NCBI GenBank assembly: GCA_964489875.1
Contig: CAZAZW010000001.1
Coordinates: 310,337 to 374,336 of the forward strand
Source of the DNA: an uncultured Gammaproteobacteria bacterium
Lineage (GTDB): Bacteria; Patescibacteriota; Microgenomatia; Daviesbacterales; UBA10151
Reading direction: 5' to 3'
DNA: 64,000 nt
Shown: piece after piece, positions 40,929 through 64,000 of the stretch
Numbering within the stretch: position 1 is the stretch's first letter
Layout of the letters: each line of letters starts with the position of its first letter
Translations under genes and position numbers: made by a program
Notes under the pieces: generated by a model
What the model was told of the DNA's origin: nothing
The model's input: only the letters and a program-made list of their open reading frames with translations
Database searches by the model: none

Positions 40929-41489
40929 ATGCGCTTTTTTATAGCCCTAGAAATACCGAAGGAGAATTTACCGGAGTTTCAATCTATTCAGGTTAAATTG
41001 CACACATTAATTCCTCAGGCAAAATTAACTGCTCTAGATAAGATTCATCTAACTTTAGCCTTTGTAGGAGAACAACCAGAGGAGCTAAAGGAAAATTTAA
41101 TTCAGGTCATTGCGGGTTCAACAAATGGGGTACTTACTTTCCAGGTTACCCCGGCTTATATTGATGGTTTTCCCCAAATCCACCACCCGGAGGTTTTATG
41201 GGTAGGTGTCAAGGGAGATATAGATAAAATTCACATCATCAGGGAAAGAATTAAAGATGGATTGAAAAGTTTACATTTACCGGTAGATGAACGACGTTTT
41301 ATCCCGCATATTTCCGTAGCCAAATTCAGCAAACCTTTTAACATTGGCAATGGCTTGGAAGATAGTTTTGAAAAAATCATGTCCGCCCCTTTTGCTCCAA
41401 TTCAAATCTGCTCCATCAAACTATTTGAATCTGCTCCTGAAAACGGCATCCACTACCACAACACCCTGGCAGAAATTAAGCTTTTTTAG
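40929..41489 (+). CDS. thpR: RNA 2',3'-cyclic phosphodiesterase (2H phosphoesterase, LigT/ThpR)
   Basis: Two HxT/S motifs: HLTLAF and HISVAKF. Confidence 0.8.
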   Translation: MRFFIALEIPKENLPEFQSIQVKLHTLIPQAKLTALDKIHLTLAFVGEQPEELKENLIQVIAGSTNGVLTFQVTPAYIDGFPQIHHPEVLWVGVKGDIDKIHIIRERIKDGLKSLHLPVDERRFIPHISVAKFSKPFNIGNGLEDSFEKIMSAPFAPIQICSIKLFESAPENGIHYHNTLAEIKLF

Positions 41490-42320
41490 ATTGATCCAAA
41501 AAATATATATCTTTCTTAAAACTTTCATCGGAAAACTGAAACTCGCCTTTACCATCAATGACTGCCTGGTAATTTTTGCAATCATTACATAAATCATCCC
41601 CCTTAATACACACCCAATTGTCCTCCCCGATTGCCTGTTTAATCTGTAAGGCTTTATCCTTAAGCCACTCCAGTTTTTCTTCCAACTCATCTAAAACTGC
41701 CTCTTTTGGGACAGACTCCCGATCCAAATACCAATAACTTATTTTCGAGACTCTTTTTTGTAGATTGGATTCCGCCAGAATGGCATAAGTGTGCAGTTGG
41801 GTAGAATCCTCCTCCTCTTTTGAGCCGGTCTTAAAATCCAGGATATGCAGGCTGCCATCCGGTAGCTCTCCCACAAAATCCACTCTACCATTTAAAACAA
41901 TCTTTTCATCTAATCTAAACCTAAGAAAATCAAACAAAGGAACATGAGGCCCCAGGTGTTTAACATTATTTAAAAAATTATCCAGCATTTGCAAACCCCG
42001 TTTGCCAAATTCAGCCTCTTCTTCGCGCGAGCTAAAACCACCCCTTTTGCCTCGGTACTTTAACCAGTGGTTTTTATATTGCTTAATCACACTGTCTTGA
42101 TCAGCCATTCTGCCGGTTTGCAAATACCACTTGATAGCGTCATGGACCAGGGAACCTAAAGTCATCGGAGCTGAAGCTATTTGTAGACGATTCCCGGTTT
42201 TCGGGTCTCTGTACCTATTTTTAAGGTAATAGGCACGGGGACATCTTAAAAAGTCTTTCAGTCCGGTATATGAAATCCACAAAGCATCCTTAATATATTC
42301 ATGTTTTTGCCTGGGGATCA
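41476..42320 (-). CDS. PD-(D/E)XK nuclease, Cas4/RecB-like with Cys cluster
   Basis: ISYTGLKDFLRCPRAYYL, GRVDFVGELPDGSLHILDFKTG, C-terminal CIKGDDLCNDC. Start trimmed to GTG at about 42320 to avoid a 100-nt overlap with tsaD (uncertain). Confidence 0.6.
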
Positions 42321-42359
42321 CAATCTTAATTCTTACTACAAATTTGCTACAATAACAAC

Positions 42360-43490
42360 ATGGTAATCTTGGGAATTGAAACCAGTTGTGATGAAACGGC
42401 AGCTGCAGTAGTGCAAAAGTCCGGAGAAAGGGTAAAAATTTTATCCAATGTTGTGGCATCCTCAGCTGCGCTGCAAGCTAAATACGGCGGTGTAATCCCC
42501 GAACAAGCTGCCAGAGAACAAATAAAATCTATTATTCCTGTTATCCAAGAGGCACTTTCTGAAGCATTTCCCCAACTACCAACTACTAACTACCAACTAC
42601 ATATTCCTATTGATGCAATAGTAATTACCTACGGTCCCGGACTTATCGGCTCACTTTTAGTAGGCGTCGAAACAGCCAAAACCCTGGCCATGGTCTGGAA
42701 CAAACCACTCATTCCGGTAAACCATTTACTGGGCCATTTCTATGCGAATTGGATTAATGATCAGCCTACCCTCCCCTGCCTTGGCTTGCTTATCTCCGGC
42801 GGGCATACTGATTTAGTTTTATTCAAAAGCCATGATAAATACGACTACCTAGGTGGAACCCGGGATGATGCAGCCGGGGAATGTTTTGACAAATGCGCCA
42901 GGCTTTTAAATTTACCTTATCCTGGTGGGCCGGAAATTTCTAAATTAGCCACACGTGGAGATGCTTCAAGGTTCAATCTCCCCAGACCTATGATTGATTC
43001 CAAAGACTTTGATTTTTCATTTTCCGGCTTAAAAACTGCGGTTTCTAACCTTTTAAAAAATGAGGGGGTGCTGTCCCTGAACGCAGCGAACTCTAGACGA
43101 GCGAAGCGAGCGTATCCGAGTCCGCCAGGGCGGACGCAGGACGCTTGCGTTAGTGAGCAAGTGAGCGGGATTGCCGACCGAAATATTCTCCAGGATTTAT
43201 CCGCTTCCATAGAACAAGCTATTGTTGATGTTTTAATTACCAAAACCCTCAAGGCCGCCCAGAAATATAAAGTCAAGCAAATAATGGTGGCTGGTGGAGT
43301 TGCTGCCAACCAAAAACTAAAAAGTGACTTAAGATTAAAAATTAATGATTTAGGATTAAAAATTAAATTGCACATCCCTACGCCTGAACTCTGTACTGAC
43401 AATGCTGCCATGATTGCTACGGCTGCCTTTTTTAACTACCACCCCACTGATCCCTTAACCCTCCAAGCCAACCCCAATTTATCCCTGTGA
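42360..43490 (+). CDS. tsaD: tRNA N6-adenosine threonylcarbamoyltransferase
   Basis: ILGIETSCDETAAAVV, NHLLGH, GGHT, FSFSGLKTAV, VAGGVAAN, CTDNAAMIA. Confidence 0.9.
   Translation: MVILGIETSCDETAAAVVQKSGERVKILSNVVASSAALQAKYGGVIPEQAAREQIKSIIPVIQEALSEAFPQLPTTNYQLHIPIDAIVITYGPGLIGSLLVGVETAKTLAMVWNKPLIPVNHLLGHFYANWINDQPTLPCLGLLISGGHTDLVLFKSHDKYDYLGGTRDDAAGECFDKCARLLNLPYPGGPEISKLATRGDASRFNLPRPMIDSKDFDFSFSGLKTAVSNLLKNEGVLSLNAANSRRAKRAYPSPPGRTQDACVSEQVSGIADRNILQDLSASIEQAIVDVLITKTLKAAQKYKVKQIMVAGGVAANQKLKSDLRLKINDLGLKIKLHIPTPELCTDNAAMIATAAFFNYHPTDPLTLQANPNLSL
42572..42599. repeat. Heptamer tandem array CCAACTA x4 inside tsaD
   Basis: ccaacta ccaacta ctaacta ccaacta, translated as QLPTTNYQLH. Confidence 0.85.
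43079..43184. repeat. GC-rich ~106-nt element, copy B, in-frame inside tsaD
   Basis: Same modules as 29993-30102 in the same DNA orientation, but here the host gene is on the plus strand. Translated as NAANSRRAKRAYPSPPGRTQDACVSEQVSGIADRN. Confidence 0.8.
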
Positions 43491-59158: not shown

Positions 59159-60001
59159 TTATTTCACTTGACTCTTGACTCTAGTCACTAGACTCTCCAA
59201 TCCTCCCCAACCTGACACCCGATGCTGCTGAACTATTCCCAGTATTGTATACGTATTCCAATAAATTGCAAGCCCGATGGGAAAAGTAAAGGCAAAATAA
59301 CCAATCATGATCGGCATTAAATACACCATCTGAGATTGAACCGCGCCCATGCTTTCTTCAATTCCCTCTTTCTCCTTTGCTTCCTTGGGAGAGTCAGTTG
59401 GGTAGTGCTTAACCGGTTTCGGCAAAGTCATCTTCGATTGAATAAAAGTTAACACTGCTGTCAGAAGGGGGATTAACAGTAAACCAACTCCCAAACTGGC
59501 AAACTCAGAGGGTTTAGCGCCTAAATTAAGTCCGAAAAAATTCGGATCCAGGGTAGAAGGAAGCTTAAGTTGCGGAAAATATAACAAAGAATTTATTTTA
59601 TCAATATGACCGCCTGCCCCGGGTAAAATATTAATAATTGATTGATATAAAGCTATAAATACCGGGATCTGAATTAAAGCCGGCAAACAACCGCCGGCCG
59701 GATTGACACCGTGCTCCTTATAAAGTGCCATCTGAGCGCTGGCAAAAGCTTGCTTATCTCCTTTGTGCTTCTGCTTTAGCGCATCCAGGTGCGGCTTTAA
59801 ATCAGCCATCTTTTTAGTAGCCTTAATCTGAGAAGCCATAAATGGCCAAACCAAAATCCTGATTAAAACAGTCAGAGCCAGTATGGAAAAACCCAGCGCC
59901 CCCGGGATATGCAAACTGGAAAGTCCCTGGAAAATTAATACCAGCAGGTTAATAACCGGACCAAAAAATATTAAGTTAAAAAGATCAATAATAGCACCCA
60001 T
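59159..60001 (-). CDS. yidC: Membrane protein insertase YidC
   Basis: Conserved YidC/Oxa1 core (PFMASQIKATKKMADLKP, GGCLPALIQIPVFIALY, GLAIYW). Start set at the ATG that shares an A with the yidD stop (TAATG). Confidence 0.9.
   Translation of the reverse strand: MGAIIDLFNLIFFGPVINLLVLIFQGLSSLHIPGALGFSILALTVLIRILVWPFMASQIKATKKMADLKPHLDALKQKHKGDKQAFASAQMALYKEHGVNPAGGCLPALIQIPVFIALYQSIINILPGAGGHIDKINSLLYFPQLKLPSTLDPNFFGLNLGAKPSEFASLGVGLLLIPLLTAVLTFIQSKMTLPKPVKHYPTDSPKEAKEKEGIEESMGAVQSQMVYLMPIMIGYFAFTFPIGLAIYWNTYTILGIVQQHRVSGWGGLESLVTRVKSQVK
59167..59194. repeat. Imperfect heptamer tandem array at the yidC 3' end
   Basis: cttgact cttgact ctagtca ctagact, translated on the minus strand as SLVTRVKSQV. 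Confidence 0.7.
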
Positions 60002-60201
60002 TATCTGCAGCTCCAAATTCTTTTGATTCCCAACCAACCTCCCCTGAATACCCCGAATTCCCCGATTTTCTGCTTGGTATATTCAGAACAGCTGACTTCA
60101 TACTTGCATGCTCCACCCGGGGCAAAAATAGCTAAAACTCCTCTGTCAAAGGATAAATAATTTTGATAAAACTCGATTATATTAACTAATAATCTTCTCA
60201 T
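60001..60201 (-). CDS. yidD: Membrane protein insertion efficiency factor YidD
   Basis: FYQNYLS...CKYEVSCSEYTKQKI...G..LGIKRIWSC. Confidence 0.8.
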   Translation of the reverse strand: MRRLLVNIIEFYQNYLSFDRGVLAIFAPGGACKYEVSCSEYTKQKIGEFGVFRGGWLGIKRIWSCR

Positions 60202-60520
60202 TTCTTAAAACTGCCTCCACATCCAAAAGCAGATCACCTGATTTTACATTAAGTACCCCGGCTTTGGGAAGAGCTAATATATTGATCCGCTGCGGAAGAC
60301 TAGCGTAAAGCGCTTCAAAAACAGCCGAGGTCAATCTTCTGGCTCTGTTTCGCTCCACAGCTTTCTTAAAAGATTTTCCGGAAATAGCTATACCTATCCT
60401 CGGTAACTGATTATCGCCCAGTTTAACAAAAATCTTTAAATACTTTGTCTCTAGTCTTTTTCCAGCAGCCGCCCACTTGAAATCTTTTTTTAAACTTAAA
60501 CGTTGAGACTTAGGGAGCAT
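60182..60520 (-). CDS. rnpA: Ribonuclease P protein component
   Basis: LPKSQRLSLKKDFK...; sits between rpmH and yidD as is canonical. Confidence 0.8.
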   Translation of the reverse strand: MLPKSQRLSLKKDFKWAAAGKRLETKYLKIFVKLGDNQLPRIGIAISGKSFKKAVERNRARRLTSAVFEALYASLPQRINILALPKAGVLNVKSGDLLLDVEAVLRNEKIIS

Positions 60521-60657
60521 TAGACTGTAAGACGAGCTCTACCGGTTGCCCTTCTTCTTTTTAAAACTTTTCGGCCACCGGCAGTGGCTTTCCTGGCCAT
60601 AAAGCCATGCTTTTTAGCTCTTTTTAATTTTTTTGGTTGATATGTCCTCTTTGGCAT
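60520..60657 (-). CDS. rpmH: Ribosomal protein L34
   Basis: Hand translation: [45 protein letters not shown]. Absent from the ORF track because it is under 60 aa. Its stop shares 1 nt with the rnpA start. Confidence 0.9.
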
Positions 60658-60834
60658 TTGTTTATATTAGCAGAAAATTTCAGCCTTGTATAGCTATCTT
60701 CTAAATCTGCAATTGATCTACTTATTTATAGTTTCTCTATATTGTCAAGGTTGACAATCTGAACTAAATTGTGGATAACTGATTTTGACTTTGTGGATAA
60801 GTCAAAATCATAATTCTATTACTTGCCCCAATCT
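60658..60834. other. oriC part 1 / dnaA promoter region with DnaA boxes
   Basis: AT-rich stretch at 60660-60740. Palindrome attgtcaa-gg-ttgacaat (60741-60758). Perfect TGTGGATAA boxes at 60770-60778 and 60792-60800, and a 1-mismatch box TATGGATAA at 60834-60842. Confidence 0.7.
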
Positions 60835-61839
60835 ATGGATAACCTACGCCTTTGGCATAAATTTTTATCAACCATTAAACCCCAGGTTGGAAATGACAAC
60901 TTTAAGGCATACTTTTTAAAAACCCTGTTAAAATCCTCCAATAACGATCTGATCGTCTTAAGCGCTCCCTCAGCATTCATAAAAGAGAATCTGGATCAAA
61001 AATTCAAGACCATTATCAAGCAAGCCTTTGCTAGTCTTTTAGGCAAAAAGGTGGAGGTTGAATTTATTGTCAAAGAGACCGAAAGGATGACAGAGGAAGT
61101 GGAGGAAGATTTTTTCCAGCCTATCCAGACCACACCCAGCGCTTTAAACCCCAAATATACCCTGGAAAACTTTGTGGTTGGACCCTCTAATAATGTAGCT
61201 TATGCTGCGGCCCAGGCAGTAGTGCAGAATCCGGGAACAAGTTATAATCCGCTATTTTTATACGGGGGGACCGGGGTAGGAAAAACTCACTTAATGCTGG
61301 GTATCGGTAACGCCCTGTTAGCAAAAAAGGGGCATCTTAAAGTTATCTACTGCTCTTCGGAGAAATTCATGAATGATTATGTCACCGCCATCCAGGAACA
61401 TAAAATGGGGGATCTGAGAAAAAGATACCGTATGGCTGATATACTACTGATTGACGATATCCAATTTTTCTCCGGTAGGGAAGGAACGCAGGAAGAGTTT
61501 TTCCACACTTTTAATGAGTTGCAATCCAAAAACTCGCAAATGATCCTAACTTCAGACCGACCTCCGCAAGAAATTGCCAAACTGGAGGATCGACTTAAAA
61601 GTCGTTTTACCGGAGGACTGATGATAGACATCCAATCACCTGACTTTGACACTCGGGTGGCAATTTTACGGGCTAAGTGTGCTGAACAAGGAAATATGCT
61701 ACCTGAAGACGCTCTTAAATTAATAGCTTCTTCCCTAGATTCCAATATCAGAGAACTGGAGGGTAAGCTAATCCAAATCTTACAATCCTTAAAAGCCCAA
61801 GCAAGTTTTATCTGTAATCTGCAGCTTCTTCGACGTTAG
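60835..61839 (+). CDS. dnaA: Chromosomal replication initiator DnaA, domains I-III (reading frame ends prematurely)
   Basis: GGTGVGKTHLM (Walker A), LLIDDIQF (Walker B), LTSDRPP, RLKSRF, IRELEG (sensor II). Stop at 61837-61839 before domain IV. Confidence 0.85.
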   Translation: MDNLRLWHKFLSTIKPQVGNDNFKAYFLKTLLKSSNNDLIVLSAPSAFIKENLDQKFKTIIKQAFASLLGKKVEVEFIVKETERMTEEVEEDFFQPIQTTPSALNPKYTLENFVVGPSNNVAYAAAQAVVQNPGTSYNPLFLYGGTGVGKTHLMLGIGNALLAKKGHLKVIYCSSEKFMNDYVTAIQEHKMGDLRKRYRMADILLIDDIQFFSGREGTQEEFFHTFNELQSKNSQMILTSDRPPQEIAKLEDRLKSRFTGGLMIDIQSPDFDTRVAILRAKCAEQGNMLPEDALKLIASSLDSNIRELEGKLIQILQSLKAQASFICNLQLLRR

Positions 61840-62074
61840 CTTAAAGGATTTAACCGGACCAAAAAGGCAAAAAGAGCTGGTGCTGCCGCGCCACATTGCG
61901 ATGTATATACTCTCAGAAGAACTAAGGCTAACGGTAGAAAAAATCGGACAAGTACTGGGGGGCAGAGATCACACCACAGTCATGCACGGTAGGGATAAAA
62001 TGAAACAACTGATTAATAAGGACCGGGAAGTACAACGGATGTTTATCGAAGTAAAACAGAAAATAATGAGTTAG
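61772..62074 (+). pseudogene. dnaA: DnaA domain IV in the +1 frame (frame-shifted continuation of dnaA)
   Basis: The frame is open from 61772: ...KQVLSVICSFFDVSLKDLTGPKRQKELVLPRHIAMYILSEELRLTVEKIGQVLGGRDHTTVMHGRDKM. The ORF track shows only the GTG-initiated 64 aa from 61880. Confidence 0.8.
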
Positions 62075-62249
62075 ACTTTATCCACCAGATAAAGTTATTT
62101 ATCCACAATTTATCCACCATTTTTAAACAAGCATTTAACACGAAAATTTACCAAAAAGTGAACCGGAAATCTTTAGTTACCAACAAATCCACAGACTATA
62201 TTATTACTACTATTGTTTAATAAATTGTGTAGTATAATCGAACATACTT
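62075..62249. other. oriC part 2: DnaA-box cluster between dnaA and the next gene
   Basis: TTATCCACC at 62078-62086, perfect TTATCCACA at 62099-62107, TTATCCACC at 62110-62118, AAATCCACA at 62185-62193, TGTGGACAA at 62249-62257. AT-rich stretch at 62119-62160. Confidence 0.7.
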
Positions 62250-62708
62250 GTGGACAAGTATAACTTACTTTTTATTGGAATAATTATTCTTCTTTTAATA
62301 ATCACTTATTTAATTGGCAGGTTACATGGAAGAAAACCAACTGATATTCCGACTGATTTAATTGATCTTTATAAAGGGGTACAGGATTTACCTGCAAAAG
62401 TATTACAAGCTATACAAGGATCAATCAATCCACAAAAGGGTAAAATGGCAGAACTGCTGACTTATGCCGAACTTCGCTATGATTATGACCGGATTATTCC
62501 ACTTGGCTGGCCGATTGATTTTATCGGAATCAAAAATAATGAGCGGATTGACTTTATTGAAGTAAAATCCGGAGTAGCTCACCTCTTGACAGATGAAGAA
62601 AAACACATTAAAAACCTTATTGCGGCAGGACGGGTTAATTTTAGATTGATTAAGGTGAGCGAAGATGAGGTCCAAAGGTTTGTATCTGCCAGAAAGGAAT
62701 CGGACTGA
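62250..62708 (+). CDS. Membrane-anchored PD-(D/E)xK endonuclease-like protein (archaeal Hjc-related type, tentative)
   Basis: GTG start. N-terminal TM helix LLFIGIIILLLIITYLIG. KGKMAELLTYAEL...PIDFIGIKNNERIDFIEVKSG (D...E-x-K). Confidence 0.45.
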   Translation: MDKYNLLFIGIIILLLIITYLIGRLHGRKPTDIPTDLIDLYKGVQDLPAKVLQAIQGSINPQKGKMAELLTYAELRYDYDRIIPLGWPIDFIGIKNNERIDFIEVKSGVAHLLTDEEKHIKNLIAAGRVNFRLIKVSEDEVQRFVSARKESD

Positions 62709-62759
62709 GTGAAGAGAAATTATAATCTCTTATTAATTTCTCTAAACGAAGGAGATCGC

Positions 62760-62792
62760 TTGCAAAAATTGCGGATAAGCAATTTTTGACAA
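62760..62792. promoter_or_regulatory. DnaA-box-like site embedded in a palindrome upstream of dnaN
   Basis: ttgcaaaaattgc-GGATAA-gcaatttttgacaa. TGCGGATAA (62770-62778) has 1 mismatch to TGTGGATAA. Confidence 0.45.
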
Positions 62793-62802
62793 GGGAAAAG
62801 CT

Positions 62803-63903
62803 ATGAAGTTTACAGTTTTACAGCAAGATTTACTGCCGCCGCTTCAGGCAGTAGCCAGATCTGTTGGCATTAGGTCGACTTTGCCGGTTTTAGACAATGT
62901 ATTATTATCTCTTGAAGATAAGAAATTAAAAATCGCTGCCACTAATTTAGAGATCGGAGTGGTTAAGTATGTCAATGTAGAGATAGAGGCGCCTGGTGAA
63001 ATTACTGTTCCTGCCAAAACTTTAGTTGAGCTGATTTCCGGTTTAGGGCAAAACAAAGTGAGTTTGACTGCAGAAAGCGAGGTTTTAACTGTGCAGTCAG
63101 GTAAATTTAAGGCCAGTGTTAACGGTATAGCTGCAGCCGAGTTTCCGGCTATTCCTATGTCCGAAGATAAAGGAATAAGTTTTCCTAAAGAAGCTTTTTT
63201 AACTTCCTCACAAATCCTTTTTGCCTCAGCCTCTGATGAAGGCAGGCCGGTTTTAACCGGAATCCTGACTGAGGTTTCCAACGGCAAGTTAGATTTTGTG
63301 GCTACTGATGGATTTAGACTGGCCCACCGGCAGGTAGATTTACCAAAAGACACGGCACAGTTTAAAAGTTTAATCCCCAGAAGGACTTTTGAAGAGCTGC
63401 ATCGGCTGATTTCGGAGGAAGAAATTGAAGAAGTGAGTATTGCCACCAGTGAAAACCAAAACCAAGTGGTATTTAATCTGGGGAGCACTCTGATTTCGTC
63501 CAGGCTAATTGAGGGACAATTTCCGGCCTGGGGAAAGATTATACCGGAGAAAATTGTGGCGCGGGCCTTAGTGGAAAAAGATGAACTGTTAAAGGGAGTT
63601 AAACTAGCAGCTATTTTTGCCAAAAATGAGGCTAATGTGGTAGTTTTAACCACCAAAAAGGGATTGTTGAAGCTGGAATCTCATGCTAAAGAGTTAGGCA
63701 GTCAGGAAAACGAGGTTGAAGGAGAAATAGATGGAGAAGAACTTAAAATTGCTTTTAATACCAAATTTTTACTGGATGCACTATCAAATGCTCCTTCTTC
63801 GCAGATAATGATGGAGTTTTCCGGAGCCTTATCTGCTGCTTTGATAAAACCAGTCGGGGTGGTGGGTTTAGAGTATATTGTAATGCCAGTGAGACTTAGT
63901 TAA
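62803..63903 (+). CDS. dnaN: DNA polymerase III beta sliding clamp
   Basis: MKFTVLQQDLL...ATNLEIG...ATDGFRLA...; 366 aa, immediately downstream of the origin region. Confidence 0.9.
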   Translation: MKFTVLQQDLLPPLQAVARSVGIRSTLPVLDNVLLSLEDKKLKIAATNLEIGVVKYVNVEIEAPGEITVPAKTLVELISGLGQNKVSLTAESEVLTVQSGKFKASVNGIAAAEFPAIPMSEDKGISFPKEAFLTSSQILFASASDEGRPVLTGILTEVSNGKLDFVATDGFRLAHRQVDLPKDTAQFKSLIPRRTFEELHRLISEEEIEEVSIATSENQNQVVFNLGSTLISSRLIEGQFPAWGKIIPEKIVARALVEKDELLKGVKLAAIFAKNEANVVVLTTKKGLLKLESHAKELGSQENEVEGEIDGEELKIAFNTKFLLDALSNAPSSQIMMEFSGALSAALIKPVGVVGLEYIVMPVRLS

Positions 63904-64000
63904 ACTCCGCGATAAGTAATTGTTTTAAAATGGTAGATCTTTTCTTCTCCCCATCTGCCTACTCCATCAAATTTTGTTTCAGTCCCTATAAATAATGTAT
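63900..64000 (-). CDS. 3' end of a convergent ORF running off the window (product unknown)
   Basis: The minus-strand frame is open from the window edge: ...TLFIGTETKFDGVGRWGEEKIYHFKTITYRGV*. The stop overlaps the dnaN stop. Confidence 0.25.
   Translation of the reverse strand, partial: TLFIGTETKFDGVGRWGEEKIYHFKTITYRGV

Follow-up and report, generated by a model that had tools for sequence, protein, structure and literature searches.

In the 64-kb stretch of DNA analysed here (hereafter the window), the gene of the replication initiator DnaA is split between two reading frames. This split probably results from a local mis-assembly, that is, from the omission of 77 nt in the deposited contig, the organism itself having an ordinary single-piece DnaA, and it most likely represents no new biology. 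The deposit annotates the essential initiator as products of 334 aa and 64 aa, and should be flagged or corrected before it is cited as a case of dnaA loss or recoding in CPR bacteria.

Two reading frames in the deposited dnaA

The region was translated in the three forward frames. Frame 1 runs from ATG at 60835 to TAG at 61837-61839 (+) and encodes 334 aa, with TTG at 60823 as a possible alternative start. This 5' piece covers domain I, the linker and AAA+ domain III as far as sensor II: it carries Walker A (GGTGVGKTH), Walker B (LLIDDIQF), box VII (RLKSRF) and sensor II (NIRELEG), as a DnaA-type AAA+ ATPase does, and matches DnaA_N and Bac_DnaA (PF00308, positions 1-162 of 162, E 1e-66) in Pfam. 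Its C-terminal end reads SLKAQASFICNLQLLRR before the stop codon (also written LIQILQSLKAQASFICNLQLLRR). The piece is authentic through the glutamine codon at 61798-61800; from 61801 to 61839 (+) the codons of domain IV are read in the wrong frame, giving the out-of-frame tail ASFICNLQLLRR that ends at the TAG. The C-terminal helix-turn-helix domain IV, which binds DnaA boxes, is present in the +1 frame, where KPKQVLSVICSFFDVSLKDLTGPKRQKELVLPRHIAMY and, further on, GGRDHTTVMHGRDKM are encoded and Bac_DnaA_C is matched almost in full (PF08299, positions 2-68 of 69, E 2e-23). A TAA at 61790-61792 closes this frame, which is then open over 61793-62074 (+), with authentic domain IV extending from K/Q at 61799-61804 (KQVLSVICSFF...) to the native stop at 62072-62074; it overlaps frame 1 by 47 nt (61793-61839). 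No single continuous frame of the deposited contig thus holds all the DnaA domains. That the AAA+ module and domain IV lie in different frames, and that Walker A and B, box VII and sensor II are found in the frame 60835-61839, had been proposed in a sequence-only reading of this DNA, and both points were confirmed by translation and Pfam. Two of its coordinates need correction: the +1 frame, given as open from 61772, is closed by the TAA and opens only at 61793, and the A-run, given as 61790-61794, comprises four A at 61791-61794.

The DNA of the three closest relatives (L001, L002 and L003, with DnaA proteins P0001, P0002 and P0003 of 438-444 aa) was used for comparison. Both dnaA pieces are under purifying selection, as shown by dN/dS of the window against relatives, which is about 0.05 for the 5' piece and about 0.03 for domain IV in the shifted frame, where no stop is found in 93 codons. 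The window contains three perfect TTATCCACA DnaA boxes in 64 kb, and all of them flank dnaA (60770, 60792 and 62099). The upstream cluster (60770-60842, no strand assigned) consists of the perfect boxes at 60770 and 60792 and a one-mismatch box at 60834, and the downstream cluster (62078-62257, no strand assigned) of the perfect box at 62099 and one-mismatch boxes at 62078, 62110 and 62249. Retention of these binding sites implies a working domain IV. The gene has the location of an origin-borne dnaA, with DnaA boxes on both sides and dnaN and rpmH/rnpA adjoining: rnpA (60182-60520, -) and rpmH (60520-60657, -) form the canonical origin-region neighbourhood, and dnaN (62803-63903, +) is intact and encodes 366 aa.

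Several further features of the window were recorded. Between dnaA and dnaN, within the region of the downstream DnaA boxes, lies a gene of the Endonuc_Holl family (PF10107; 152 aa, 62250-62708, +), a family with kinship to the Holliday-junction resolvases of archaea. The same arrangement is found in the 82%-identical relative L003 (11548-11952) and in part in L001 and L002, and the gene looks like an insertion that is conserved in the origin region of Daviesbacteria. A 66-aa YidD ORF (60001-60201, -) shares 20 nt with rnpA and overlaps yidC, from its annotated TTG start, over 37 nt; an exact match of its product is known from Logan only and not from the NCBI source, and the ORF is probably unannotated in the deposit. 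The 327-aa ORF at 41476-42459 (-) has a C-terminal cysteine cluster, CIKGDDLCNDCKNY, and by its sequence looks like a possible PD-(D/E)XK or Cas4-like nuclease. As the ORF has a long 5' extension that runs into the start of a tsaD-like gene (42360-43490, +), its true start is probably further downstream. The coding density of the window is about 94%, and the apparent non-coding gaps hold ordinary ORFs. No other split gene was found in the 64 kb among suspicious adjacent same-strand ORF pairs, the members of such pairs belonging to different Pfam families. ARAGORN reported no tRNA genes in the 64-kb window, and no Rfam family reached its gathering score there; 64 kb without RNA genes is a rather long stretch for a genome of about 1 Mb.

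A 77-nt gap in a linker of conserved length

A protein search with the fused DnaA sequence returned thousands of DnaA proteins, and the best 120 were examined. All 120 are 434-473 aa long and are encoded by continuous ORFs, and the named members among them are Candidatus Daviesbacteria (Patescibacteria/CPR). The spacing between sensor II (RELEG) and GGRDHTT is 89-92 aa in 119 of these 120 best homologues, and exactly 90 in 93 of them; in a window protein repaired by one nucleotide it would be 64 aa. Over the aligned residues, the window DnaA is 96% identical to P0001 and to P0002, and 88% to P0003. When contigs were scanned with the dnaA 5' piece, the best among the matches listed, which included neither the source genome nor that of P0003, was 76% identical, and a protein search with the linker and domain IV yielded fragments only, at ≤79% identity and with partial coverage.

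In a protein alignment with eight homologues, the only residues missing from the window DnaA form a single block of 26, between ...LQSLKA and KQVLS...; the segment kept in the relatives reads QNLSA..SDH/Y. The DNA alignment with L001, L002 and L003 contains one gap in the window dnaA, of exactly 77 nt, at 61798-61801, and no further dnaA indel relative to L001 and L002. Since 77 nt equal 26 codons minus 1 nt, this gap explains both the 26 absent residues and the +1 shift. At the junction (61798-61801, +) the window reads GCCCAA followed directly by GCAAG, and the intact sequence GCC CAA AAT TTA ... GAY YAC AAG CAA G, so that the breakpoint is ambiguous within a 3-nt CAA microhomology. The window is marked by the junction string AAAGCCCAAGCAAGTTTT and the shorter deletion marker AAAGCCCAAGCAAGTTTTATC, and the intact allele by GCCCAAAATTTATCTGCCAGC...GTGGTC and GCCCAAAATTTATCTGCC. 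With the 77 nt restored, the window dnaA is an ordinary Daviesbacteria DnaA, and the protein can be aligned over its full length with B. subtilis DnaA (PDB 8BTG).

The shortage of about 25 linker residues estimated in the sequence-only reading comes to 26 against all close relatives and to about 28 against 8BTG. Of the two causes considered there, the secondary one, a deletion of non-multiple-of-3 length, is correct, as the 77-nt gap in the alignment with the three intact relatives shows. The primary one, a one-nucleotide error with the A-run as a candidate site, is contradicted by the lesion itself, which measures 77 nt and lies at 61798-61801, outside the A-run; the genes of L001, L002 and L003 are continuous and differ from that of the window by 77 nt, not by 1 nt. 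A homopolymer error at the A-run was rejected because of this length. It is true that a one-nucleotide change can join the frames, as removal of any one nucleotide within 61791-61839 (except 61815, which creates a stop) fuses them, but the fused product is still 26 residues short.

Two other origins of the gap were considered. In the intact allele, an imperfect in-frame direct repeat with its copies 81 nt apart brackets the missing segment; the copies, CAAAATTTATCTG (QNLS, at the start of the missing segment) and CAAGTTTTATCTG (QVLS, at the start of domain IV), are identical at 11 of 15 positions and share the 8-mer TTTATCTG. Repeat-mediated deletion was rejected, as it would remove 81 nt instead of 77 and does not match the junction. 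That 77 might be the k-mer size of the assembler is speculation.

The two frames could also be imagined to function as they stand, either through a +1 ribosomal frameshift that yields a 412-aa short-linker DnaA, for example by slippage of tRNA-Lys from AAA to AAG at UUA AAA GCC (61788-61796), or as a two-subunit split protein. As read from the sequence, A-AAA-G would let tRNA-Lys re-pair in the +1 frame, and a shift within the 47-nt overlap gives a stop-free product. However, the same TTAAAAGCC motif lies inside the continuous ORFs of L001, L002 and L003, the A-site codon GCC is neither rare nor a stop, and inspection of 61780-61840 revealed A-AAA-G as the only slippery candidate and no Shine-Dalgarno-like stimulator at the right distance, the nearest GGAGGG being about 29 nt upstream. 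Transcriptional slippage, for its part, needs runs far longer than 4 A. The split is conserved in none of the best 120 homologues, which, like the three aligned DNAs, are all continuous, and the fused product would lack 26 residues of a linker whose number of residues is conserved within 3 in 119 homologues. As for a two-piece protein, the second piece has neither a complete domain nor a well-placed ribosome-binding site: the only start for domain IV is GTG at 61880, which opens a 64-aa ORF (61880-62074, +; P0121, a separate product of the source contig found in NCBI only) without profile positions 1-28 of the 69-position domain, and AAGAG 3 nt upstream of this GTG is poorly spaced for a Shine-Dalgarno sequence. 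The 64-aa ORF is not a credible independent gene. In addition, a second assembly of the same strain, described below, has the unshifted sequence. Frameshifting and a two-piece DnaA, both listed as options in the sequence-only reading, are thus contradicted by the continuous ORFs of the homologues and by the truncated domain IV, respectively; we regard this kind of biology as extremely improbable, and recoding or a split protein is essentially excluded.

A second assembly of the same strain and the origin of the gap

By exact-sequence look-up, the 334-aa and 64-aa pieces, the 152-aa ORF product and the jag, rnpA and dnaN products were all traced to a single 399,694-bp contig from NCBI. Logan contigs encode identical rnpA, yidD and dnaN proteins as well, and these contigs come from a single public run, SRR4343435. 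Logan contig L086 of this run matches window positions 59243-61800 with 100.000% identity (0 mismatches in 2,558 nt), a stretch that fully includes rnpA and rpmH (100% identity), and contig L085 equals 62588-64000 with no mismatch, dnaN being identical there as protein and as DNA. At 61800, L086 leaves the window, continues with AATTTATCTGCCAGCTCCGAAAATATCGCTACCTTCTTAGGCCAAATTCCTAAAAAACCCGTGGTC, and then ends. This tail supplies 66 of the 77 missing nucleotides, in frame, and encodes NLSASSENIATFLGQIPKKPVV. The contig stops 11 nt short of the right-hand junction, and intact dnaA is accordingly seen through the left junction plus 66 nt; the full missing segment after 61800, as reconstructed, is AATTTATCTGCCAGCTCCGAAAATATCGCTACCTTCTTAGGCCAAATTCCTAAAAAACCCGTGGTC plus about TCTGAYYACAA. 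The peptide NLSASSENIATFLGQIPKKPVV is identical to its counterpart in P0003, while the DNA is identical at 62 of 66 positions with 4 synonymous differences; against L001 and L002, 49-51 of 66 positions are identical. These values indicate that the tail does not come from another known lineage and is the native linker of this strain.

The exact look-up found the truncated 334-aa and 64-aa products on record from no Logan assembly, and only from the NCBI contig. In a separate exact look-up of encoding contigs, the 338-aa, 334-aa and 64-aa products had no entry. As positive controls showed, the Logan protein collection does not hold products cut by contig ends, and the absence of such partial products from it is uninformative. 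The deletion junction TTAAAAGCCCAAGCAAGTTTTATC had 0 matches in JGI metagenomes, a collection without this strain, and a scan of the same metagenomes with the intact linker matched only L087, a 1.02-Mb contig of P0003 type. Literature searches found no papers on run SRR4343435 and nothing relevant on Daviesbacteria DnaA.

The locus is also a mosaic. Over 60835-62650, the window resembles the L001/L002 type and the L003 type by turns, with several switches: its identity is 93-98% to L001/L002 and 54-74% to L003 within the 5' half of dnaA and at about 62200-62350, and in domain IV and at about 62500-62650 it is closer to L003 (86-99%). Such a pattern suggests that homologous recombination is frequent among co-existing Daviesbacteria lineages. 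A chimera of two strains joined right at the junction was not supported, since the similarity to the two types changes by degrees and several times along the locus. Heterogeneity of this kind among strains breaks assembly graphs, and the break of L086 inside the linker suggests strain heterogeneity or low coverage there.

From these results, we infer that the deposit, not the cell, is at fault, and a route of the error can be proposed. The organism, a member of Candidatus Daviesbacteria (Patescibacteria/CPR), would have an undivided DnaA of about 438 aa encoded at its origin. The deposited contig would omit the 77 nt that code for the stretch linking the AAA+ lid to domain IV (QNLSASSENIATFLGQIPKKPVVSD followed by H or Y), and the loss of 26 codons together with the +1 shift would make the gene caller report pieces of 334 aa and 64 aa. 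Candidate causes are a mis-join at this place, the collapse of a gap, or a chimeric template, and the error would have occurred at a site where the assembly graph is broken up by related strains living side by side. Neither a frameshifting nor a split-protein mechanism would then be at work, and the omission would not be a property of the living genome. An artefact is favoured because the only other assembly of the strain departs from the deposit precisely here, and because the locus is mosaic with respect to co-occurring lineages and L086 breaks inside the linker. Among the options named in the sequence-only reading, an assembly or consensus error is hence the one we favour, as L086, which equals the window at all of 2,558 nt, contains the missing bases in frame as far as it reaches. 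On the other hand, de Bruijn graph assemblers rarely invent junction k-mers, and the 3-nt CAA microhomology is the trace that slippage or a template switch would be expected to leave at a real deletion, but chance could also account for it. The sequence GCCCAA joined to GCAAG could therefore be backed by real molecules, or by a library chimera, in the source sample.

The latter considerations lead to the main rival, a rather unlikely explanation: a very recent real deletion allele of 77 nt, present in a sub-population or in the population of the deposit sample, which arose when replication slipped or switched template at the CAA microhomology and was followed by the assembler. In its carriers dnaA would be non-functional, and they might be defective or dying cells, or the allele might come from extracellular or amplified DNA. 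Besides the microhomology, this explanation would account for the junction itself, given that de Bruijn assemblers normally output only k-mers found in reads; the contig is clean elsewhere, and zero divergence from L086 fits a very young event. Nevertheless, the only public run that holds the strain, SRR4343435, assembled the intact allele, the truncated products appear in no Logan assembly, and a null allele of a gene with dN/dS of 0.03-0.05, located beside maintained DnaA boxes, should not reach a majority. It is very unlikely that a real deletion exists in living wild Daviesbacteria, with DnaA-less replication, a DnaA without domain IV, or a lineage with a defective initiator beside intact siblings. 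If the deletion were real and dominant, it would be a rare natural inactivation of the initiator in a lineage of free-standing episymbionts; the results obtained here speak against this.

Still less can be said for a fixed, genuine pseudogene in a lineage that replicates without DnaA, as a few reduced endosymbionts do, which we consider highly improbable. CPR genomes are reduced, and the deposited window taken at face value has no intact dnaA. Yet a pseudogene would be expected to show relaxed selection or several lesions, and here a single lesion is combined with dN/dS of 0.03-0.05 on both pieces; the sequence is 100% identical, with 0 substitutions, to that of L086, which has an intact linker; DnaA boxes are kept on both sides; and the best 120 of thousands of homologues are all intact. 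An old pseudogene, the remaining option of the sequence-only reading, is contradicted by these dN/dS values and by the zero substitutions relative to L086. An omission in the deposited contig thus remains the explanation that we prefer.

Comparison with known systems

Local mis-assemblies in metagenome-assembled genomes are a known class of artefacts, and the window dnaA resembles them in that one indel, tens of bases long, stands alone in a contig that is clean elsewhere, and in its setting, where strains differ and independent assemblies break. Its likeness to the programmed +1 frameshifting of prfB (RF2) consists in two overlapping frames in +1 relation. The window dnaA differs from prfB in lacking an in-frame A-site stop and a Shine-Dalgarno stimulator at a distance of 3 nt, and its arrangement is conserved in no homologue. 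Canonical bacterial DnaA proteins, represented by those of B. subtilis (8BTG), Thermotoga maritima (2Z4R) and Aquifex aeolicus (1L8Q/2HCB), share with the window the same domain I, AAA+ domain III motifs and GGRDHTT domain IV, and their genes the same rpmH-rnpA-yidD-yidC / dnaA / dnaN neighbourhood with flanking DnaA boxes; the difference is that here 77 nt between the lid and domain IV are absent and the ORF is interrupted. The closest counterparts, the DnaA proteins of Candidatus Daviesbacteria (P0001, P0002 and P0003), also share the gene order of the window, including the Endonuc_Holl gene between dnaA and dnaN, but they are encoded by continuous ORFs with the 26-aa segment that the window lacks.
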